Assembly: GCA_958296135.2 (NCBI GenBank) | Contig: CATQHZ020000001.1 | Location: 4,832,001 to 4,896,000, forward strand | Reading direction: 5' to 3' | DNA: 64,000 nucleotides | DNA from: an uncultured Poribacteria bacterium | GTDB lineage: Bacteria; Poribacteria; WGA-4E; WGA-3G | Shown: positions 3,661-57,655 of the stretch, in pieces | How positions within the stretch are numbered: the first letter of the stretch is position 1 | How the letters are laid out: every line of letters begins with the position of its first letter | Notes under the pieces: generated by a model | What the model was told of the DNA's origin: nothing | Databases searched by the model: none | The model's input: the letters and a program-made list of their open reading frames with translations, nothing else | Translations under genes and position numbers: made by a program

Positions 3661-4182
3661 CTAACGCCCTACCTCCCATGCCAAATGTTGGAGCTCCGGC
3701 CCGATGAGTTTCTCCCATGCCAACTGCACAGCAGCAGTAGAACCCGGCGTGGAGATAACCACCTTGCCGCGATAGACACCCGCTGTCGCGCGTGAAAGCA
3801 TGGCAGCGGCTCCAACCTGTTCATAACTGAACATCCGGAACAGTTCGCCGAAGCCAGGCAGCGTCTTCTCCAACTTGCGGTTGAGAACATCAAACGTCGT
3901 GTCGCGCGGTGCGATGCCGGTACCGCCGTTGAATAAAATGACGCGCGCATCGCTGGCCGCCATCTCATCTAAAACCGATGCTACCTGAGCCGGTTCATCT
4001 TTGATAATCTGGTATGCAACCACGCTGTTCCCTTCCGCCGATAACTGTTCTCGTAGAAAGACAGCGTTCTTGTCCGTCTCCGGCGTGCGCGTATCGCTGA
4101 CGGTGACAATCGCGACAGCGACGGCTCCCTGTTCGGTTGCCATGTCTCGATGTTGTTGTGTGCTAGTAGAACCTGTTGTCAT
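3661..4182 (-). CDS. moaB: Molybdenum cofactor biosynthesis protein B (MogA/MoaB family)
   Basis: [27 protein letters not shown] and SRATAG motifs. Confidence 0.9.
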
Positions 4183-4279
4183 TGTTAATTCCTTCTGTTC
4201 CTTTGAACCTACACAAATCGAGACAAGAGCAGAGATAACGTCTATTGCGTTACCATCTCTACCGTGTGGTTTGCAGCGA

Positions 4280-5833
4280 TTATCTCGCTGGAGGAACCCT
4301 CAAAGCACGTGACATTTCCGCTATGAAAATACCGCGTGCGCCGTTTAAATCCCTGTCACACCGATGACCGTCTGCATCAGTAATCACCTTCGCACCGCCG
4401 AGGTTCTCGACAATGTTACCTGTCCAGCTAATCGTCTTTGACGTATATGCTTCATTGGCATCAACTACAAGAACGCCATATTCCTTCGCCTTTTGCTTCA
4501 GGAACATTTTGAACTGGTAATGCGATAACGTGAGCATTTGTCGGACAGACTTTTTACGGAGCTTCCTCGCACCACGCCGTGTCATCTGCTTTGTTTCAAA
4601 CGTCGGCAGCAGGATAACGTCGTAAGTATTGACAAGGAAGTGTGCAACTTTCTTGTGTAGTTCCTTCACAAGATTACGGATGTTTACCTGAATCTTCTGT
4701 GCGCATTTTCGCAAGGTGCGCCGTAGCGGACGCTTTACTTGTGTTGCGCGGGAGTAGAGATCATCTGCATGTTGGCAGAGCCTCTGGATACGATTAATTG
4801 CATGATGTCCGAGCCAGCCGAACGCCGTTTCAGAAAACATTGTCATGAACGTCCGAACGCCAGGGTCGAGTGCTACGATATGTCCGCTTGAGTCTCGCGG
4901 TTTTGTTTTCTCGATGTAGCTGACGTTCATATAAAACCTGTCATGTTCCATGACGATGCGACTCTCTTTTACCTCAGATTCATGGTCACGTTCCGCCTTC
5001 TTGCCAGGACCTTGCGGCTTCGCTGGGAGCGTTTCTGTCATCTTCATTTCACCGAGTAAGCGGACATAAAAACCATGAGTTTTGATGAACTGCGCACACA
5101 GGTAAAACGACTTCGTGGTGTTCTTCTTCCTGCGGAACTTTACGCATTGCGGTTCACCTGTTTCCTTCCACTTTCGCCGTGCTGCAGTCACCGCTTTCTG
5201 TGCATCCATCACTGCACCGACACGGATATGTCGAGGACAATTCGATGTCCACTCAGGCAGTGTTTTTAGCAAGTCAGGCGCATAAACCTTGCGTCCTTTA
5301 TTGAATTGCTTCACCGCCTCGTTGTAGACGTAACGTGAGATACCTTCCCACCTACGGAGTCTCGCTTTCTGTGCCGTTGTGGGTAAGATTTCGATCTGCT
5401 TTGATTTCGTCACGGTAGCGTCGGAGTCCATACATCCGTGAGGAAAAGACGTGGAGAATCTCCAGCAAATCGGAAGTAAGTTCCTGTTCGGGACTGTGAG
5501 GAGTTTGGTTGAGAACCACGACTTCTCCACCGTTTTGCTCGATAAGATATCGAATGACTTCGCTGCCGAAGCGGGCGAGTCTATCCCGATGGGCGACCAC
5601 AACGCGGCGTTGATCACCGCACAGGACTCTGTCCAATATCCGCTGGAGTCCTTTTCGCTTGAAGTTGATGCCACTGCCGAAGTCTTCAATGACTTCCGCA
5701 TCTGGGAACTTTTCCTGCATGTAGGCGACTTGCGAGGCGAGGGCGTCCGCCTGCGCTTTTCCGCTGACACGGAAACCGAAGCAAATGGTAGAAATGTCTG
5801 GTTGACGTTGAGCATCAACAAACTTTTGGACAT
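4280..5833 (-). CDS. tnpB: RNA-guided nuclease TnpB, IS607 type (start uncertain: 5833 or 5431)
   Basis: Ruv[25 protein letters not shown], Ruv[14 protein letters not shown]. Confidence 0.9.
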
Positions 5834-21509: not shown

Positions 21510-22556
21510 GGTATTTCTCCTCGGCGTGGCTTCAAGGGAAAGCCACAAGTCATTCACATTCATTCTCCCCCCAAAGTGAGGGGATGTCCCTATTTTTTCG
21601 GAAACTTTGCATCAGGTTTCAAAGGTATCACCGGTTGTGGTTTGTTGGCACCCCAGTGGCGTTGGCGCGTTCGCCGCGTGGGCAAGTGGAGACGTGAACC
21701 GGCGGCGGGTGGGGCGCGGCGGCGCGGTGCAATGGAGGTATCACCGCAGACGCACCGCGTCGCGCCCGGTTTCCAAGCGGTTTCCCGTTCACCGCGATGC
21801 CGCAATCACGTGCGGACTTCCATCCGGGGACAGCGGCACCACCGGGGGCGTGCCACAGCAACCACCGCCTGGTGGGGCCGCCGTCGGCGCAGCAGGCCTT
21901 ACACTCGCACAGCGGGCGCGGCAACTTCAACAAAGCCAGCACGAGGCGGTGGCACAGGGGCCAGCACCGGGACGCACTGTGGTTTCTGCGTTTGACTCTG
22001 CGCAAGGATGATACCTGCACCCAATAGGGTTAGCACGAGCATCGCTGCTATACTCCAGAAAAGGGGTTCTCGAAACTTTATTGGATTCCTCCTCTATCAA
22101 GTTATGATGCTTTCTCAACAGAAAGCAATTCCCATACGCTTTTACAAGGATACCACATTAAACCACACTCAATCAACCCATTTGCGAATCAAATAGGTAA
22201 CTTCACCTGGATACGCTGTTCTTTAGCAACAGCCCGTTCCTCCGGTTGGAGATGCGCGGGAGCCGCAAGGGAATAGGCGGTATCCGTATCAACCTGCGTC
22301 AAACGAGCACGAGGGAGCATTTTATGCGCTCATTAGGGAAGTGGAAGAAAGGGGAGAAAAGGTTACATCTTTTTTAGGAGGACATTGGAAAAATGGACGA
22401 ACCTAAAGAAGCCACGCTCGCACAGGACAGGCACCCGCACTACGAGCCACGGGTGGGTTTGTTGGCAAAACCAAACAACACCGCACAAAAATTAAAATCG
22501 ACTTGACGCAAAATACCGAATATGATAAACTTGGTTATCATTTCAAGGATTGTAAA

Positions 22557-50247: not shown

Positions 50248-50523
50248 TCAAGTGAAATATTTCCGAACCCGGTGCCAGCGCAACTGCCACAGCAATTGTC
50301 GCCGCCCGATACGATGGACAAAAAGCCGCTTCCCATCCATCTTAAGGACCGGAATCAGATTTTTATATTGCGTAAACAACCCAAGATTCCGGGTGATGTC
50401 AATCTCTTCAACCTCAAACCTCGGTGCCTTCGCCACGAGGCCTTGCAGCACTGATGTTGCTTCATCACACAGCGGGCAATCCGGTTTTGTGTAGAATTGG
50501 AGTTGGATTGGTTCCATCTTCAT
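50248..50523 (-). CDS. Glutaredoxin-like protein (DUF836)
   Basis: YTKPDCPLC...IPVL motif. Confidence 0.85.
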   Translation of the reverse strand: MKMEPIQLQFYTKPDCPLCDEATSVLQGLVAKAPRFEVEEIDITRNLGLFTQYKNLIPVLKMDGKRLFVHRIGRRQLLWQLRWHRVRKYFT

Positions 50524-50598: not shown

Positions 50599-50722
50599 TT
50601 CATTGACGTAATTTTTTTGGAACTTTTTGTGACTTATGGTGTATAATATTTTCGTAAGTTCATTGACGTAATTTTTTTGGAACTTTTTGTGACTTATGGT
50701 GTATAATATCTTCGTAAGTTCA
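50599..50722 (+). repeat. 60-bp tandem duplication of a promoter-like segment
   Basis: Two near-identical 60-mers, each with TATAAT and an imperfect dyad ACTTATG..CGTAAGT. Confidence 0.85.
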
Positions 50723-50752
50723 ATATCCCTTCTCTTTGAGGTTTGTGGAGCA

Positions 50753-51166
50753 ATGTTGCGAAAACATCGGCAGGTTCTCATCGTCATCATGGGCATCGTC
50801 TACGTCTATACCGTCTGCCCGCTTCTCTGTGCAACTTTAGAACAGAAGTTGTGCCACAGCCAGCAGGCGGAGGCGCAAGCCTCTTGCTGCCAAAAGACGG
50901 AAGCAGCATCCGAAACTGAAACGCCACCCGAAAATGGCGAACTGTGCTGCATCACCGAACTGGAACTCATTCTTCCAGCAGACGATACCTTCAATAGGCA
51001 CGAACTGCCTCTCAATACGATAGGCGTGCTCAGCGAGCGCGATACCGTGATTGCGCAGGTTGTGCAGCAGACTTCTCGCGCACTCTCATTGCCGCATCAT
51101 CTCCTACATCCTGCTCCCCCGAATTATATCCTATCCCGTCGGGGGCCTCCGTCTACCCGTTCTTAA
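50753..51166 (+). CDS. Cys-rich exported leader peptide with a C-terminal RGPP arrest-type motif (DUF2946/CruR-like)
   Basis: Hydrophobic N-terminus; CPLLC, CH, CC and CC; ends SRRGPPSTRS. Confidence 0.75.
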   Translation: MLRKHRQVLIVIMGIVYVYTVCPLLCATLEQKLCHSQQAEAQASCCQKTEAASETETPPENGELCCITELELILPADDTFNRHELPLNTIGVLSERDTVIAQVVQQTSRALSLPHHLLHPAPPNYILSRRGPPSTRS

Positions 51167-51272
51167 GTCGCGCTTTTTTCGCGCGCGTCACTTTCTCTTT
51201 TAACGCACGGGTTCCTCGTTCTATGGCACCCGCGCGCTAATTTTAATGAATTACGGGTTAAACAGACGGAGG
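51146..51272 (+). promoter_or_regulatory. Putative translational attenuator (anti-SD pairing)
   Basis: CCTCCGTCT 51146-51154 is complementary to AGACGGAGG 51264-51272; ACCCGT 51155-51160 is complementary to ACGGGT 51253-51258. Confidence 0.65.
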
Positions 51273-51280
51273 AAATAAAG

Positions 51281-52303
51281 ATGCAACCCAGAAATTTCAC
51301 GCTTGAAATCAAGCACTATGTCGCCATCTTGGCGATAGTCTCCCTCGGCTTTCTCTCCCTCATCGGGATAAGCCTCGCCGAAGAATACGCTGGCCACGAT
51401 GCGCACCGCGGGCATCAGGCTCATACCGCCGCGGGCATCAATGTCATGCTGCATAGCGAACCGGAAACCGTTCAGGTGGGAACGTCAACGAAACTGACGT
51501 TCCACCTCACCGATGAAAACGGCGAACCTGTCACCGATTTGTTGGTGCATCACGCACGAGTGCTCCATATTCTCGTCGTCAGCGAGAATTTAGGTATCAT
51601 CGGACACATTCACCCCGAAGATTTTGAAGACCGGGATGTCATGGAGGAATTGGAGGGACGCTATACCGTCCACTTCACGTTCCCTGCCGCGGGCCGCTAC
51701 ATTCTCGCCATCGACGTGATGACAGCAGATGCCGAATTCGCGAAATATGTCTACGTTGAGGTCGAGGGCGAATCGAAAATGGGCGAGATGGTTCGCGATT
51801 TCCGCACGGAAAAACCTGCCTTCGGCTATACCGACGAAGGCGGGGACAGATACACAAAGGCGGTATCGGTAACCGATAGCGATTCCGACGCGGCGTATTA
51901 CGTCAAAATGGACGCACCCGACCGGATTAAAGCGGGTGAGAGCGTTCATATCGCTTACCATTTTTCGCGCGATGGGAAACCGCTCACAGACCTGGTGCCG
52001 TTTTTGGATGCACCAATGCACTTCGCAATTGTAAGCACGCGCTTGGACGGTATCATCCATACGCACGGCAGCGTGCCAGCCCCGCACGCGGGCCACAAAA
52101 TGATGCAGCAACGCAACGAACATGCAGCACATCAGAAGCCCGCATCCCGCGGTCACGAGCACCACGGCGGGCTGCCCGATACATTCGGGCCCACCGTGAA
52201 TCTGATGACAACGTTCCCGCAGTCCGGCATTTACCAAATCTTCGGGCAACTCAAGCATGAAGACCGGATTATCTGGTTGAACTTCATGGTTGAAGTGGAA
52301 TAA
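51281..52303 (+). CDS. His-rich periplasmic heavy-metal-binding protein with two Ig-like domains
   Basis: Signal peptide; HHARVLH..HIHP and MH...HTH motifs; FP..GRY and FP..GIY. Confidence 0.8.
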   Translation: MQPRNFTLEIKHYVAILAIVSLGFLSLIGISLAEEYAGHDAHRGHQAHTAAGINVMLHSEPETVQVGTSTKLTFHLTDENGEPVTDLLVHHARVLHILVVSENLGIIGHIHPEDFEDRDVMEELEGRYTVHFTFPAAGRYILAIDVMTADAEFAKYVYVEVEGESKMGEMVRDFRTEKPAFGYTDEGGDRYTKAVSVTDSDSDAAYYVKMDAPDRIKAGESVHIAYHFSRDGKPLTDLVPFLDAPMHFAIVSTRLDGIIHTHGSVPAPHAGHKMMQQRNEHAAHQKPASRGHEHHGGLPDTFGPTVNLMTTFPQSGIYQIFGQLKHEDRIIWLNFMVEVE

Positions 52304-52439
52304 TACCACCGTAGGCGCGGTTGCAAACCGCGCATACGGGAACAGTGTACCCGGGAGGCGCGCTTTGGACGCGCGCAGCAACGAAATGCACGGTTGCAAA
52401 CCGTGCCTCCCGGGGCATGACGCTGAAGGATTACAAAAC

Positions 52440-53528
52440 ATGATAAGTACACGAATTTTATTGGCACTCCTCGCCATGCAACTGATTGTTCTTCCGTACG
52501 GCTTCGCGCAAGAAAGCTGAGGCGCGTGAAGCAATCCCGCCATTCCGCGTAGCGGGATAAGTGAAGTCAGTTTGACTTCAAAGGAGACAGAAAAATTTCA
52601 GGCCGCACTCGGTATGATGCGATGGTTTGACGGACAAGGCGGACATCTCGAAGCAAAAGGGGTTTCGCCTACCGGAGAAGTGATACCTGTCCCTTTGCAC
52701 CGGCACCACGTCACCCTGAACATCCTCCGCATCGATGTTGGGTTAAAATACCAATTCAACTCCGGCTGGATGCTAGAAGCGATTGTGCCGTATGCGATTA
52801 AGGCGCAAGAGGCAACAGTGGAGAAAATTGAAGGCTATCCCATCACCGATACCGAAATGGATGCAATTTTGCGGAGCCGCGATAACCATCATCGAAGCGA
52901 AACCTACACGGGACTCCAAGACGGTGAGGTGTTGCTCGGCTACAACGCGCAAGGACTTCTCCAAAAAAGCGATGTTCTCGCCGCACGCCTCGGCACAACA
53001 GTGCCACTTGGAAGCACGGAGGCAAACCCATGGGAACTCGGTGAGAAGGGGCTGAAGCATCTCCATATCCAGTTCGGCAGCGGCACCTTTAACCCTATTG
53101 CTGAGCTCTCTTATCGCATGCGGCTCTACGGTGGACTCACCGCGAATGTGAACCTTCGCGGCAAGTTTCCGTTCTACGCAAACAGCAAAACCTATCGCGG
53201 TTCAAGGGAACTCACCTATATGGCAGGCGTGCAATACCGATTTACCGATTGGCTCTCTCTGCATGCCAGCTACCTTGGATTCTATCAATCCTATGCATTT
53301 TGGGCAGGGAAACAAGACATTAACAGCGGGCTCCGTTACAGTATTGCATCACTTGGCACTACTGTCAGAACACCTTATGATGCCACGCTGTTGCTAACCG
53401 TCGCGTTACCGTTGCAACAGGAGACGCTATACGACGACAGCAACGCGTTTTTAGACGGAACGTATGCGGAAAGCGACGCATTTGAATTCGGTCCGTTGGT
53501 TTCGTTAACGGTGCTCCACGCATTTTAA
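52440..53528 (+). CDS. Exported beta-barrel-like protein with an N-terminal UxxU (two in-frame TGA codons), probable selenoprotein
   Basis: GAAGGA RBS; signal peptide ending GFA; QES-TGA-GA-TGA-SNP continues in frame into the 52572-53528 ORF; C-terminal Phe. Confidence 0.72.
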
Positions 53529-53539
53529 GGAGATGACAG

Positions 53540-54502
53540 ATGTTTTCTCGAATTTACCGCGCCGCTAGCACAGGGACCCTCCTCGTGCTAGCACTTCTCG
53601 GAAGCATGCTTTCCCAGGGTACAGAGGCGCATGAAACAGAATGGCCGGGACAGAAACTCGCCGCCATCTTCCCGAAGGCGAAGAAATTCGTTCAACGGAG
53701 CGCGGTACTCACACCCGCGAAGAGTGCCGCCATTGAGAAGGAATTAGGCACGAAGCTTCGCGCCGAAGACCAGAAGCCGGTCTTCTACATCCCGATGAAC
53801 GACAAAAAGAAGCCGATGGGATTGGTGCTGTTCATCGACGTACTGGGACCGCGAGGCGTTATTGATGGCGCAGTCGGCCTGGATATGAAAGGCAAAGTGG
53901 TGAAGGTGGCTGTCTACAACCACAACGAATCGGATGCTGTGGTGGCAGACGCATTTCTGAATCAGTTCATCGGCACGGATATTGATAGCACTTTCAACAT
54001 TGGCGAGGACGTGACAGCCGTCGAAGGACACGAGGCCGCGTCGAAAGCCGTCGCCCTGCTCCCGAAAAAGACGCTGGCGATGAGTTACGCGCTCTTCCTC
54101 AAACGCAAACCGAAGCCGAAAAAGGCACCGCACCCTGAACCCCCAACGCCTGACATCAAAGACCTGGGGGAACTCATGATGTTGATGCTAGATGCCTATC
54201 TCGAGGTCGCGGCTTACTTTGACACCGGCGAGGACAAGGCGAAAGCCGTCGCAGCCGCTGAGCAGCTGGCCACCTATGCAAAGCGTATCTCTGACTTTGA
54301 ACCGCCAGAGAACGCCGAGCAGACAGAGGCATACGCCGCCCTGCACGGCACGTTTGTCGAAACGCTCACACAGTTTGCTGAGGCACTTGAAAAAGATGGG
54401 ATTTCTGATGAGACGCGCGCACAGTGGGAAACCATTGAGGAACTCGTCAATCAGGCGCACCACCGGTTTAGTGGGAAGGAAATCGAGCTGGAGGCGTATT
54501 AA
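53540..54502 (+). CDS. Exported FMN-binding-like domain plus helical bundle protein
   Basis: Signal peptide ending TEA-H; G..G.I...VGLD..GKV..V.V...FL.QF.G pattern. Confidence 0.7.
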   Translation: MFSRIYRAASTGTLLVLALLGSMLSQGTEAHETEWPGQKLAAIFPKAKKFVQRSAVLTPAKSAAIEKELGTKLRAEDQKPVFYIPMNDKKKPMGLVLFIDVLGPRGVIDGAVGLDMKGKVVKVAVYNHNESDAVVADAFLNQFIGTDIDSTFNIGEDVTAVEGHEAASKAVALLPKKTLAMSYALFLKRKPKPKKAPHPEPPTPDIKDLGELMMLMLDAYLEVAAYFDTGEDKAKAVAAAEQLATYAKRISDFEPPENAEQTEAYAALHGTFVETLTQFAEALEKDGISDETRAQWETIEELVNQAHHRFSGKEIELEAY

Positions 54503-54669
54503 ACCTTAATCCCGTTTCACTTTTCCATAGGGCGGGGGCCCGGCGAGCGCTAATCGCCGAGGGTTCCCCCCGCCATGCACTAACATCTCTTCATCGCGTA
54601 GGGCGAGGGCCCGGCGAGCGCGAATCGCCGAGGGTTCCCCTCGCCAAGCGTTCTACGATAATAACCATC

Positions 54670-56193
54670 ATGCGCAAAATAACCTTCATTTCCTTACTCA
54701 CACTCCTCTTCTGGGGCGGCATCGCTGAACATTCGGAAACCTTCGCTTTGCCGGCGTTCTACAAAATGTTCCGCGCCAAATATGGATGGGCAGGTGGGTG
54801 CAACGTCTGCCATTCCTCGAAAAAAGGCGGCGACACACCGAACCCCTACGGCAAGGCGTTCCTCCACAACGGCATGAATCTGTCTACCTTCACCCGCATC
54901 GAAGAGGAAGACTCCGACAAAGACGGCTTCAGCAACATCGTGGAGCTCGTCGCCCGCGCCTATCCCGGCGATGCCGCCAGCACCCCCGAAAACGTCCCGC
55001 CAGTCGCTGATGCAGACGAAACAGACGAGGAATTGGCACTCGATGACGAAAATGTCTTTAGTTTTGACGAACCGGCCGCGGAAACCGAAGAGGCAGGCGG
55101 CCTGAATCTCCTCAGCGATGCCTTCGGAAACCTCGTCTTCGGCGGCGCATTGGATATCCGCCGCATCACGCGCGGACAAGATTTACTGCCAGACCGCGGT
55201 AACTGGGACACCGGCACAACGCTCATCCACGTCGCTGAATTCGTCGTGACGACGAGTGTCGGCGAGCATATCAGCATATTGGGCGAGCAACTGTTGACGA
55301 CTTCTCCGCTTGGAACGCAGGTTGCCGATGACCACGGGTTTGTTTACGCCATCCTGACAGGGCTACCGGTTTTACCGAAGGGCGCGGCACTCAAAATCGG
55401 GCGATTTCGGCACACCTTCGGCATTGATACAAAATCGGATGCCGCCGCGAACCCACTCTACAACCTCGTCCGCAAGAATCTCGGTTTTATTTCTGACCGG
55501 GGGATGCAACTCAACGGCTACGCCGGTCCTGTATCGTATGTGCTATCCCTCGCCGATGGTCCTGATTCACTTCGCACCGTGCCGGCGGGAACTGTCTCAT
55601 CTGGGATACGCATTGGCCCGCATGGAAGCGGCGGGGGTGTGCTGAAACCGATTCGCAATAACAGCCCGCCTGTATTCTTGCATCTGAACGGAAACCTGTC
55701 GCTTTGGGGCAAACGCATCTGGCTTGGCGCGTCCTACTTCGATGGCAATAGTTATCCTTTCAATCCCATGAACGGCGATGTGAACCCATCAACACTCGTC
55801 TACAAACGCCGCGTCGGTGTCGCGACAAATTTCAAGGTGTGGCGATTTGACATTGCAGCGGAGTACTCGCGCGGCACCGATACGCAACTCCTGAAATATA
55901 CGGAAAATCCGAGCAGCGCGACGGTGGAGGGATGCTATCTGCACGCCGAACTTCCCTTGACAGAAACCCTAGACGTTCGATTAAAATATGATATATGGAA
56001 TCCGCATACGGAAGCGTATGGGACATTTGTTTTTAACCGAGAACCGGCAGACGAGGTGTGGACAACCCTCGGCGGCGCATTCACGTGGCACTTTACGGAG
56101 GGCGCGGTCGCACGGCTCGTTTACCAAATCAACAACGTTGAAAAGCCGACGCGCAGCGCGGCAATCATCCCACAGCTTTTGGTAGAATTTTAA
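54670..56193 (+). CDS. Monoheme cytochrome c fused to an outer-membrane porin (Cyc2-like architecture)
   Basis: ALPAF...CNVCH...PNPYGKAF..NG; DSDKDGFSN Ca-binding motif; beta-barrel region ending in Phe. Confidence 0.75.
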   Translation: MRKITFISLLTLLFWGGIAEHSETFALPAFYKMFRAKYGWAGGCNVCHSSKKGGDTPNPYGKAFLHNGMNLSTFTRIEEEDSDKDGFSNIVELVARAYPGDAASTPENVPPVADADETDEELALDDENVFSFDEPAAETEEAGGLNLLSDAFGNLVFGGALDIRRITRGQDLLPDRGNWDTGTTLIHVAEFVVTTSVGEHISILGEQLLTTSPLGTQVADDHGFVYAILTGLPVLPKGAALKIGRFRHTFGIDTKSDAAANPLYNLVRKNLGFISDRGMQLNGYAGPVSYVLSLADGPDSLRTVPAGTVSSGIRIGPHGSGGGVLKPIRNNSPPVFLHLNGNLSLWGKRIWLGASYFDGNSYPFNPMNGDVNPSTLVYKRRVGVATNFKVWRFDIAAEYSRGTDTQLLKYTENPSSATVEGCYLHAELPLTETLDVRLKYDIWNPHTEAYGTFVFNREPADEVWTTLGGAFTWHFTEGAVARLVYQINNVEKPTRSAAIIPQLLVEF

Positions 56194-56281
56194 CTGTTGC
56201 TACGTGGGCACCGTTTCACCGTAGCGCGAGGGCTTGTCCCTTGCCATGCCACACACAAAACCTTATTTGATTGGAGAACCT

Positions 56282-57655
56282 ATGAAAAATTGGATTTTAC
56301 TGCTCACAGGGAGCCTGTTAATCGGATGGACGCTAGCGGCGACGGCACAGGTGCAGCCGCCCCGGCGGAAACAGCGAATGTTAGTCAATACCGCTGCGAA
56401 GAAGGAGAAGACGTTCACGGTGGACATCGGCGAGAGCCTCAAAGATATTGCGAAGCGCGCGACGCAGCACTCCCAAAACTCAAAAGTGGACGTGGTGTTC
56501 GTCGTTGATGGCGGCTGGCGCATGGGCAGCGTGATTGCGGAATTGGAGAAGCACCTCGTTGAAATGCTCGGCGTAATAGAGCAGAAAACGATGGACTACC
56601 GATTCGCACTCGTCGGGTTTCAAGCGGTGCAAGGTGAACCGCGCGTCTCGCTGCATCAGTGGCAGTCAGACTACCTCGGCGTTGAAAACGCGCTGCGGGA
56701 AATACGGGTGAAATCCGGCAATAACGTTGAGTCCGGCTACGGATTAGACGCGCTCATGAAAGGTTTGAACGAATTTGAGTTCCGAACGGATATCGCCACG
56801 CAGCTCATTGTGGTGAGCAATTCGCGGATGCGCACTTCATGGCCCGAAGCAAAGGCGAAAAGCAAGGTTGCCGAGCAACTCATCGCCTTGTGCCATCAAA
56901 ACAATGTCCATCTCAACTTCATCGGCATTAGCGAAAAGGTTCAGGCGGAACTCACTGACGAAACCGGCGGCAAGTGGTATCCGGTCGATGCCACTCAGCG
57001 GCCGATGAGCGGACAACGGATTCGGAGCGGCGATACCATTGCCGACAAGGCACTGCTCCGCATCGATGGCTTGTTCAAACGCATCGCCGAAAATCTGGTT
57101 GAAAGCCGACCCGGCAAAGTGGACGTTGTCTTCGTCTTTGATTACAGCCGCAGCATGGAGCGCAAGGTAGCCGCGGCGTGTGATGGCATAGACAGGATGG
57201 TCTCCGTGTTTAACGCCGCGGGGATTGACTACCGGTTCGGGCTCATCCGATTTTGGGCCGGTATCGGCGGCGGAGAGAGCACCGTCGTTATAACCAAACC
57301 GTCGTTGGAACCGCAACAAGTGAAGTCCCTCTTCCGGCTCCCGAAAATGGGAGACGAGCATCTGCTTGATGCCATCATGGAGGGCGTTCCGAAACTTCGT
57401 ACACCGGCAGAACGCGAGTTGGTGCTTGTCATCGTCACCGATGAAACGACGAGCCAACGGACAGACAAGGGATATACCGCGGGGAAAGCGATTGCCGTGT
57501 GCCGCGGCGCGCGGGCGCGGGTTTATGTCATCGGCGGCGTTTCTTCCATGTCCAGCAAAACCCTCGGCGATAACTTCCAACGTCAAGTCGCGCAATTAAC
57601 CAAGGGCATCCACTACATTATGCCGGGTGCTACTATCGCCGACCCGAGACGGTAA
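56282..57655 (+). CDS. Secreted double vWA domain protein, paralog of 6152-8347
   Basis: DVVFVFDYSRSM and GDEHLLDAI.EGVPK shared; first MIDAS degenerate. Confidence 0.85.
   Translation: MKNWILLLTGSLLIGWTLAATAQVQPPRRKQRMLVNTAAKKEKTFTVDIGESLKDIAKRATQHSQNSKVDVVFVVDGGWRMGSVIAELEKHLVEMLGVIEQKTMDYRFALVGFQAVQGEPRVSLHQWQSDYLGVENALREIRVKSGNNVESGYGLDALMKGLNEFEFRTDIATQLIVVSNSRMRTSWPEAKAKSKVAEQLIALCHQNNVHLNFIGISEKVQAELTDETGGKWYPVDATQRPMSGQRIRSGDTIADKALLRIDGLFKRIAENLVESRPGKVDVVFVFDYSRSMERKVAAACDGIDRMVSVFNAAGIDYRFGLIRFWAGIGGGESTVVITKPSLEPQQVKSLFRLPKMGDEHLLDAIMEGVPKLRTPAERELVLVIVTDETTSQRTDKGYTAGKAIAVCRGARARVYVIGGVSSMSSKTLGDNFQRQVAQLTKGIHYIMPGATIADPRR

Follow-up and report, generated by a model that had tools for sequence, protein, structure and literature searches.

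The 64,000-nucleotide stretch analysed here, called the window below, comes from an uncultured Poribacteria bacterium (contig CATQHZ020000001.1, positions 4,832,001 to 4,896,000), and coordinates are positions within it unless another sequence is named. Five plus-strand genes, g1 to g5, form a locus that a preliminary description of this DNA had proposed as an operon of co-oriented, exported proteins joining metal uptake to redox chemistry. All five open reading frames (ORFs) were found on that strand.

50753-51166, plus strand: g1, 137 amino acids, C-terminus ...SRRGPPSTRS
51281-52303, plus strand: g2, 340 amino acids, His-rich
52440-53528, plus strand: g3, 362 amino acids with both in-frame TGA codons read as selenocysteine (Sec)
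53540-54502, plus strand: g4, 320 amino acids
54670-56193, plus strand: g5, 507 amino acids, with CNVCH at residues 44-48

The N-termini of the five proteins are basic and then hydrophobic. Read by eye, all five appear to carry an export signal. Relatives of g2, g4 and g5 are adjacent in other genomes. A scan of one genome per species returned 60 loci with a g5 relative, 52 of them close (50 titled Poribacteria and 2 titled 'uncultured bacterium') and 8 outside Poribacteria. The order g1-g2-g4-g5 is found in 35 of the 52 close loci. In another 12 a g3-family gene stands between g1 and g2, and 4 are partial or cut by a contig end. Of the 52, 47 begin with g1. The order in the window, with g3 between g2 and g4, occurs in none of the other close loci among the 52 compared. 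The genes g1, g2, g4 and g5 are a conserved operon with a fixed order across genera, so the synteny expected of the locus holds for these four.

The eight loci outside Poribacteria carry a split module that consists of a porin gene, an FMN_bind-like gene, and a gene that joins a small cytochrome c to another FMN_bind-like domain. Their titles are Myxococcales (2), Kofleriaceae, Nitrospirota, Ca. Manganitrophaceae (2), Omnitrophota and an unclassified 'bacterium'. The g4-like domain keeps its place beside the porin and cytochrome parts from phylum to phylum. Directly before the porin, with a 4-nt overlap, the split modules also encode a His-bearing membrane protein of about 250 amino acids with several hydrophobic segments, which in two records is apparently fused to the porin in one frame.

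On the evidence of its sequence and its model, g5 is a heme c-porin fusion, as had been proposed. A signal peptide is followed by a monoheme cytochrome c domain (CNVCH, nt 54799-54813) with a DSDKDG motif that resembles a calcium loop, by an acidic linker with a conserved VFSFD (127-134), and by a porin barrel of about 16 strands (residues 152-506). His48 of the CXXCH is nearly invariant. The N-terminal domain matches part of the NCBIfam GEGP diheme protein (58.7 bits against a cut-off of 300) and, weakly, Temptin_C. The model has a predicted local distance difference test score (pLDDT) of 60.7; within it, the barrel region (residues 152-506, pLDDT 70-88) has 16 long strands and 2 short ones. 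General porins, namely OmpU, Omp38, OprP and AlgE, match the barrel best in structure. The 86 database homologues are mostly close. Three distant fused homologues keep CAACH and DSDGDG, and three others are without the cytochrome domain.

This architecture had been called Cyc2-like. According to the available portion of PMC8406198, Cyc2 proteins have a signal peptide, one CXXCH, a 16-strand porin and a length of at least 365 amino acids, together with two motifs, AXPXFAR[Q/K][T/Y] at five residues ahead of CXXCH and PXL at four residues behind it. The corresponding stretch of g5 reads ALPAF-YKM-FRAKY-GWAGG-CNVCH, a partial Cyc2 motif with a three-residue insertion, and continues CNVCH-SSKK-GGD with no PXL; a distant homologue reads FERQY-x5-CAACH. 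The comparison thus stands for the architecture, whereas one published motif is only partly matched and the other is absent. These features bear on the alternative that the locus serves Cyc2-type Fe(II) oxidation, in which g5 would oxidise dissolved Fe(II) and g4 would pass the electrons to the respiratory chain, for energy or detoxification. The signal peptide, single CXXCH, roughly 16 strands and 507-residue length of g5 all agree with it, and the pattern F-(R/E/K)-x-(K/Q)-Y, x5, CXXCH in g5 and its distant relatives resembles the FAR[Q/K][T/Y]-x5-CXXCH published for Cyc2. No source, however, names any of the 86 homologues Cyc2, the AxPxFAR motif is interrupted by three residues, PXL at +4 is missing, the neighbours described below are of copper or thiophilic-metal type and not of iron type, and the operon opens with the Cys-rich leader g1. 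Fe(II) oxidation is considered very unlikely.

The partner protein g4 had been described as FMN-like. It does have an FMN_bind-like domain, but the match to PF04205 lies below the Pfam cut-off (17.4 bits against 22), as does a match to cytochrome b562, PF07361 (16.3 against 30). A distant g4 relative just reaches the FMN_bind threshold at 22.2 bits. The flavinylated Thr of FMN_bind domains sits in an SGAT motif; where this flavin-attachment motif is expected, g4 reads VEGHEAAS, without the Thr. In the helical domain, a four-helix, b562-like region, M213, M216 and H307 are invariant among 49 sequences. The heme ligands of cytochrome b562 are Met and His, and the three residues fit heme ligation of the b562 type. 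A search of the ESM Atlas with g4 returned only its own cluster, and PDB sequence searches with g2, g4 and g5 gave no match at E<=0.1. The b562-like C-terminal domain recurs in this genome (C1:4992293-4992673) and in relatives at 57-65% identity; in each genome searched the recurring domain is the end of an open frame of about 500 amino acids belonging to a different gene.

At the N-terminus of g4, A30, H31 and P36 are invariant in 18 sequences, two distant ones included; the His is kept even in relatives from Nitrospirota and Myxococcales. If signal peptidase cuts after T-E-A, mature g4 starts with His, so a histidine-brace-type copper site at His31 is conceivable from the sequence. A model of g5 (residues 20-507) in complex with g4 (30-320) gave an ipSAE of 0.70, the best of three controls reaching 0.00. 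The mark used for this score is reached by 58 of 80 solved complexes and by 2 of 110 mismatched pairs, a calibration that holds only roughly here because the alignments were our own. The model runs share at least 88% of contacts, with partner pLDDT of at least 81. In the modelled interface, g4 residues 30-41 and the FMN_bind-like domain meet the VFSFD linker and barrel residues of g5. The pairing of g4 with g5 is well supported by synteny, and docking of g4 into g5 is predicted by the model.

The His-rich protein g2 scores above the cut-off for the YtkA-like family PF13115 (32 bits against 25.9), only residues 50-89 being aligned. It contains two tandem related YtkA/CtaK-like domains (internal repeat E 6e-7), conserved GHxHPE and IHTHG motifs (48 sequences), and His-rich stretches at both termini. 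Its nearest ESM Atlas cluster is the YtkA cluster, with a score of 0.95. YtkA, now CtaK, is implicated in CuA assembly, and the domain also ends the YcnJ copper importer, according to the accessible part of PMC13344008. These features suggest that g2 is a copper-chaperone-like exported protein.

The first gene of the operon had been linked to the DUF2946 leaders. The sequence GGAG lies four bases ahead of its ATG. Among 15 g1 sequences (27-82% identity), all have a basic and then hydrophobic N-terminus, the hydrophobic part covering about 20 residues (judged by eye). They share VCPLxCA in this segment, one further Cys and two CC pairs. The motif S-x-R-(G/A)-P-P is invariant, 2-4 residues ahead of the stop, and reads RGPP in 14 sequences and RAPP in one. 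In the window it is R130-G-P-P133, four residues ahead of the stop, and R(G/A)PP is present in all 48 loci that hold g1. The hallmarks of DUF2946, in the portion of PMC9426467 that was available, are an export signal, a CXXC, RAPP three residues from the end and a spacing of 45 residues. The invariant RxPP near the end of g1 agrees with that link, but Cys66 and R130 are 63 residues apart, against 45 +/- 2 in DUF2946, and the conserved Cys residues form a CPxxC in the hydrophobic segment, a single Cys and two CC pairs, in place of the CXXC/CxxxC of that family. No Pfam domain matched g1 at E<=0.1, and g1 is not among the four PF11162 matches of its genome at E<=10. None of 24 database homologues carries a Pfam domain, and the only one of these named by its source is from Poribacteria. 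Judged by profile and spacing, g1 is not a detectable DUF2946 member. A weak PF11162 match elsewhere in the window (about 21891-22049, E 0.02) is an Arg-rich low-complexity frame and was dismissed as noise.

The RNA that joins g1 to g2 is predicted to fold such that the end of g1 covers the start of g2.

51146-51160, plus strand: 5' arm of the leader helix, the Pro-Pro-Ser-Thr-Arg codons of g1, CCUCCGUCU followed by ACCCGU
51253-51272, plus strand: 3' arm of the leader helix, ACGGGU ... AGACGGAGG, which includes the Shine-Dalgarno sequence of g2, GGAGG at 51268-51272

In this fold the Pro-Pro-Ser codons CCUCCGUCU (51146-51154) pair with AGACGGAGG (51264-51272), and ACCCGU pairs with ACGGGU. 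The Pro-Pro codons (CCUCC) would themselves be the anti-Shine-Dalgarno sequence of g2, so a ribosome paused on them would free the g2 ribosome-binding site. With a minimum free energy (MFE) of -53.8 kcal/mol (z -2.81), this fold is equalled by 1 of 200 shuffles. In the available text on CutF, a stem-loop masks the next gene's ribosome-binding site (bioRxiv 10.1101/2025.02.05.636593; PMC9973294). Across loci in which g2 follows g1 by a short spacer, at least five pairs between the Pro-Pro codons and the Shine-Dalgarno sequence are present in the MFE structure of 32 of 33. In an alignment, 83% of helix 1 is paired, and four of its pairs are compensatory; slid controls reach 33-47%.

Several results tell against such a switch. 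When everything between the CCUCC and GGAGG cores was shuffled, 453 of 640 controls (71%) still paired at five or more positions; the pairing is largely a by-product of CCUCC and GGAGG sitting in AU-rich RNA, and additional support comes from the flanks only (at least seven pairs form in 21 of 33 loci and in 24% of controls). For helix 2 the paired share is only 59%. Where a g3-family gene follows g1 (12 loci), the pairing is mostly absent, with 0 pairs in 8, and g1 fails both the DUF2946 hidden Markov model and the spacing rule of that family. The first Pro codon is CCU in 32 of the 33 g1-to-g2 loci against 6 of the 12 in which a g3-family gene comes next, a bias that is only a hint because the genomes are related. 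A plausible role for g1 is that of a switch like SecM or CutF, with a ribosome that pauses on RGPP exposing the start of g2.

The third gene, g3, contains two in-frame TGA codons, which had been read as a pair of Sec codons in an outer-membrane barrel.

52518-52520 and 52527-52529, plus strand: the two UGA codons of g3, residues 27 and 30
52534-52558, plus strand: hairpin A, resembling a Sec insertion sequence (SECIS), 5 nt after the second UGA, 94.4% paired, 2 compensatory pairs
52562-52580, plus strand: SECIS-like hairpin B, UGAAGUCA-GUU-UGACUUCA, 96.3% paired, 3 compensatory pairs

Read through, the protein has a signal peptide and then Q-E-S-U-G-A-U-S-N-P, the UGA pair lying three residues past the likely cut. 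In a word-indexed protein search that listed the best 120 of 362 homologues, these called proteins (the product of the window itself apart) reach only 84-91% coverage of the query, since their called ORFs begin behind the TGA pair. A six-frame search found a match in 37 of the 41 genomes of the same order, this genome included; nearly all of the top matches hold two in-frame TGA codons, and a second set holds one. When the loci of 30 relatives were read through, 28 gave UGAU, 1 UVAU and 1 CGAU, and the context ...AQES-UGAU-SNPAIPRGG... is present in 28; a pair so placed in all 30 goes far beyond chance. A HMMER search of 1.84 billion representatives gave 391 matches at E<=0.001, and full-length homologues have Cys at both positions after the signal peptide (CPACSNP, CAACGNP, CAGCRNP). 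A metagenome scan, made with a narrower g3 alignment, found 73 loci, of which 25 were short or truncated and were dropped. The remaining 48 N-termini read UxxU in 27, CxxC in 18 and CxxU in 3.

The covariation score of hairpins A and B was reached by 0 of 500 shuffles, and slid controls pair at 32-56%. An inner alternative of hairpin A is paired at 88.9%, against 94.4% for the outer form, and was set aside. The genes selA, selB and selD and the tRNA-Sec are all present in the genome, each above its cut-off, with the tRNA-Sec next to selB. A different genetic code, with TGA read as Trp or Gly, was rejected, since TGA is the stop of 15 of the 44 ORFs of at least 250 amino acids in the window; the six plus-strand genes from g1 to the VWA gene behind g5 (below) all end in TAA. 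A conserved UGA with coding sequence on both sides, Cys homologues, a downstream stem-loop and the Sec machinery are the computational signs of a bacterial selenoprotein. All were found, and g3 is therefore called a true selenoprotein of the UxxU type, an assignment from sequence that is very secure.

Three further observations concern selenium. The selD gene itself (C1:2864299-2865270, outside the window) holds one in-frame TGA, so that the selenophosphate synthetase of this genome is probably also a selenoprotein. Two g3-family database proteins show Trp at the Sec sites (DSWGAWSNP, ACSLWSNP), which suggests that some pipelines translated TGA as Trp. In UxxU metagenome loci the upstream ORF at the position of the HMA-thioredoxin gene described below is called shorter than in CxxC loci (168-171 against about 220 amino acids), and it may be cut by an in-frame TGA of a second selenoprotein.

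The barrel proposed for g3 is borne out by its AlphaFold model, which is confident (pLDDT 86.3, predicted template modelling score 0.84) and shows about 12 strands over residues 52-361; the first 25 mature residues, which bear the Sec pair, are at low confidence. Foldseek searches of the PDB matched FapF (E 6.5e-11) and the COG4313 channel Pput2725 (E 2e-10), followed by FadL and TodX. Target-normalised template modelling scores of the FapF and COG4313 matches are 0.62-0.72, with 0.72 for Pput2725. On this model, g3 is an outer-membrane beta-barrel. A PcoB/CopB-like fold was considered and is absent from the top Foldseek matches. In the family alignment H69, H89 and H151 are invariant and H150, H207, H209 and Q211 nearly so, and the family motif is HxHIQFG(T/S)GTF(D/N)P. 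No Pfam or NCBIfam model matched g3; PF13557 (Phenol_MetA_deg), which gave no match to g3 of the window, matched a few homologues weakly. One homologue ends in an HMA domain (5e-11).

The neighbours of g3-family genes were surveyed as two ORFs on each side of 24 of the 73 metagenomic loci, picked for having flanks. Among these 89 ORFs an HMA domain was found in 16 and thioredoxin in 15; MerT, E1-E2 (P-type) ATPase, RND and pyridine-nucleotide disulfide oxidoreductase were found in 2 each. The typical neighbour is one HMA-thioredoxin fusion of about 220 amino acids, directly upstream on the same strand. This context leads us to regard the family as a means of passage or hand-off of a thiophilic metal ion at the outer membrane. 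The family of UxxU, CxxC and CxxU barrels appears to be widespread and undescribed. Neither this operon nor a UxxU outer-membrane barrel was found described in literature searches. The UxxU families named in the accessible part of a 2026 review of prokaryotic selenoproteins are the Prx-like proteins, the HMA-type NF041115 and FmdB, and the only outer-membrane barrel selenoprotein named there is of the GSU2204/MtrB-PioB type.

Within the operon, g3 is accessory and not core, so the seleno-barrel had been correctly placed in the window but wrongly taken as a regular part of the system. No g3 copy of any kind is present in 35 of the 52 close loci, and elsewhere the gene stands alone or behind an HMA-thioredoxin gene. 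For 20 of 20 best g3 orthologues in relatives, none of g1, g2, g4 and g5 lies within 5 kb. In G002, a genome of the same genus, g3 stands alone after an aldo-keto-reductase-like gene. The corresponding locus of the present genome is syntenic, with flanks 82-86% identical, and holds a decayed g3 copy (C1:628500-637000, about 4015-4650 within it) with three deletions, the losses including the signal peptide and Sec pair. The g3 of the window is only 68-73% identical to this remnant and is therefore not a recent local duplicate; it is 72-74% identical to the nearest database proteins, against 85-89% for the nearest relatives of g2, g4 and g5. A different, operon-linked paralogue reads Q-E-S-C-P-A-U-S-N-P in 16 of 16 readable N-termini, a 17th locus being cut by a contig end.

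This distribution raises the alternative that g3 is a passenger that landed by chance between g2 and g4, the operon proper being g1-g2-g4-g5. The many loci without g3, the singular order in the window, the stand-alone orthologues and the low identity of g3 compared with its neighbours all speak for a passenger. Against it, a g3-family gene has entered the operon at least twice, at two positions (CxxU after g1 in 12 loci, UGAU after g2 in the window), which argues for a functional link; moreover g3 ends 11 nt ahead of the start of g4, and the stand-alone copy of this genome has decayed. A chance passenger is regarded as somewhat unlikely, and g3 is treated here as an accessory of the operon.

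No canonical copper gene (CopA, CusCBA, multicopper oxidase) is present in the Poribacteria locus itself, and the metal is inferred from domain families and from the neighbourhoods of distant relatives. In a Nitrospirota metagenome-assembled genome (MAG) the split g5/g4 module has an RND pump on one side and, on the other, a P-type ATPase bearing two YHS domains. In a Myxococcales MAG a multicopper oxidase follows the split module directly, and an RND pump is nearby. Together with the YtkA domain of g2 and the HMA and thioredoxin neighbours of the g3 family, these genes back the metal theme first proposed for the locus. It is plausible from this context that the metal is copper or another thiophilic metal and not iron.

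The same hardware could serve another metal, in Hg or Ag detoxification or in redox uptake of Mn or Fe, with the Sec/Cys pair of g3 acting as a ligand of the Hg(II) type. MerT and a pyridine-nucleotide disulfide oxidoreductase occur by some g3-family genes, for which HMA-thioredoxin is the commonest neighbour; the available part of the NCBIfam entry describes the UxxU HMA family as a putative mercuric-type metal binder; and g5 has relatives in the Mn-oxidising Ca. Manganitrophaceae. The YtkA/CtaK domains, the multicopper oxidase, the YHS-type P-ATPase and the CutF/CruR-like leader point instead to copper, and neither merA nor merR is present in the locus of the window. A metal of this other kind is thought unlikely.

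The preferred reading is that a conserved Poribacteria operon handles copper, or a different metal that is soft and redox-active, at the cell envelope, and we hold it to be evenly balanced between right and wrong. Weighing against it, besides the missing canonical copper genes and the leader controls above, are the modest confidence of the g5 model, whose N-terminal 130 residues are below pLDDT 50, and the g4 matches below the Pfam cut-offs. Only 2 of the 8 distant loci gave copper-type neighbours, the others being short or uninformative. Neighbours of the HMA, thioredoxin and MerT types suit mercury no less than copper, and Ca. Manganitrophaceae are among the holders of g5 relatives. In most relatives the operon lacks a g3 copy altogether, and g3 may therefore have an independent role.

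Two neighbouring genes and a repeat complete the locus.

50248-50523, minus strand: divergent glutaredoxin-like gene (DUF836, CPLC), Pfam Glrx-like 8.8e-17
50599-50718, plus strand: 60-bp tandem duplication in perfect register, just upstream of g1, with 2 copies that are 98% identical (spacing 60); its first base, 50599, is where the preliminary description began the locus, without mention of the repeat
56234-57655, plus strand: gene for a double-VWA exported protein, downstream of g5, VWA 7.3e-13 (Pfam)

The glutaredoxin-like gene, which had been noted as the divergent partner of the operon, is present as stated, but among the 52 close loci it is kept only in the same genus (G002) and is not part of the conserved system. 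G002 is also the one close locus of the 52 that combines g1-g2-g4-g5 with the VWA gene after g5 and the glutaredoxin-like gene upstream. Behind g5, a VWA gene is present in 16 of the 52, and it may be part of the operon. Of the 12 loci with the CxxU barrel paralogue, 11 have it in this position. Three loci with VWA are cut upstream of g4 or g5, so that their barrel status cannot be read, and G002 is the only barrel-less locus with VWA. This co-occurrence may just follow phylogeny. Each copy of the 60-bp duplication contains TTGGAA-N19-TATAAT and, from its sequence, could be a doubled promoter; a sigma-70 scan missed it because the spacer lies outside 16-18. The scan for promoters and terminators gave overall counts near the shuffled expectation and no convincing plus-strand terminator within the operon.

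A mechanism consistent with the preferred reading can be outlined. The g1 peptide would be exported during its synthesis, and its Cys cluster would sense metal outside the cytoplasm. The ribosome would pause at the invariant R-G-P-P, four codons before the stop, and the paused ribosome would free the ribosome-binding site of g2, in a manner resembling SecM and CutF. The control could equally well depend on Rho, as in CruR, and the response could have either sign. The g2 protein, with its two YtkA/CtaK-like domains and His clusters, would carry metal in the periplasm. The g4 protein would dock into the g5 barrel, or onto it, by its N-terminal segment and FMN_bind-like domain, and the heme c of g5, perhaps with a heme b in the b562-like domain of g4, would move single electrons between periplasm and cell surface, changing the redox state of the metal, Cu(I)/Cu(II).

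The g3 protein would come from a separate, widespread family of small plugged barrels with CxxC, CxxU or UxxU in the first mature residues, normally encoded beside HMA-thioredoxin, and would provide outer-membrane passage or hand-off of a thiophilic metal ion. Its stand-alone gene has decayed in this genome, and a divergent, intact copy lies inside the operon. Both the assignment to copper and the arrest mechanism are plausible on the analyses above. A bolder version is an undescribed outer-membrane copper redox conduit, in which the histidine-brace His of g4 would sit in the lumen of g5, the UxxU barrel would pass Cu(I), and the RGPP leader would be the switch; it is considered improbable. 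As a whole, the preliminary description was right about the RxPP motif, the Sec codons, the heme-porin, the barrel and the metal theme, and the synteny by which it could have been refuted holds for g1, g2, g4 and g5. Membership of g1 in DUF2946 and g3 as a core gene were not borne out, and its idea that selenium couples metal binding to electron transfer is unsupported.

How copper and other soft metals cross the bacterial outer membrane, or are processed there, is poorly known. If the bolder version is true, the UxxU/CxxC barrel family, which is widespread in marine metagenomes, would be the first Sec-using outer-membrane channel dedicated to thiophilic metals, and the leader a new family of RGPP arrest peptides outside DUF2946, in which the Pro-Pro codons also serve as an anti-Shine-Dalgarno sequence. 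The g3 family of selenoproteins is of interest for its pair of Sec residues on an outer-membrane barrel and for matching no NCBIfam or Pfam model. As a second, independent RxPP leader family, g1 would widen the CutF/CruR principle beyond DUF2946, Proteobacteria and Bacteroidota. The cytochrome-porin and its conserved docking partner occur in at least four phyla, beside copper genes, and advise caution against calling every heme-porin fusion in a metagenome an iron oxidase. For sponge symbionts, the locus points to a dedicated metal-handling trait.

Compared with known systems, the locus would work like a CutF/CruR leader joined to a miniature porin-cytochrome, yet it lies outside DUF2946, and a kinship of g5 to Cyc2 is suggested by architecture. 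Like CutF of Rhodobacter capsulatus and CruR of Bordetella pertussis, g1 is the first gene of a metal-related operon and has an export signal, a conserved Cys cluster and an invariant R-x-P-P a few residues from the stop; as in cutF-cutO, the predicted intergenic RNA structure takes in the next gene's ribosome-binding site. It differs in having no PF11162 match, in its Cys pattern (CPxxC and two CC pairs, not one CXXC/CxxxC), in a distance from Cys to RxPP of about 63 residues instead of 45, in an anti-Shine-Dalgarno sequence that lies within the Pro-Pro codons, and in a family that, over 24 matches, was seen in Poribacteria only.

The g5 protein shares with the Cyc2 proteins of iron oxidisers a signal peptide, a single N-terminal CXXCH, a C-terminal porin of about 16 strands and a basic/aromatic motif five residues before the heme site. 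It differs from them in that no detectable sequence match is reported, and in its DSDxDG calcium-loop-like motif, long acidic linker and lack of PXL. In addition, it is always paired with an FMN_bind-like partner, its porin and cytochrome are separate genes in other phyla, and its context is of the copper type. As in porin-cytochrome systems of the MtrAB type, part of a periplasmic redox partner is predicted to sit in the lumen of an outer-membrane barrel. Here, in contrast, there is one heme c and not ten, the g5 barrel is far smaller, and the inserted partner, g4, is no heme c protein but an FMN_bind-like one that has a b562-like domain.

The closest structural counterparts of the g3 model are the 12-strand plugged channels of COG4313 (Pput2725) and FapF. 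Their sequence identity to g3 is 10-14%, and g3 differs from them in its N-terminal CxxC/UxxU and its invariant His residues (H69, H89, H151; HxHIQFG). We know of no N-terminal CxxC or UxxU, and of no such invariant His, in either of these families. With the UxxU HMA proteins of NF041115 g3 shares the replacement of a metal-binding CxxC by Sec-x-x-Sec and the existence of Cys forms in other organisms. The NF041115 proteins have a small, soluble HMA fold, whereas the pair in g3 is predicted to lie at the mature N-terminus of an outer-membrane barrel.

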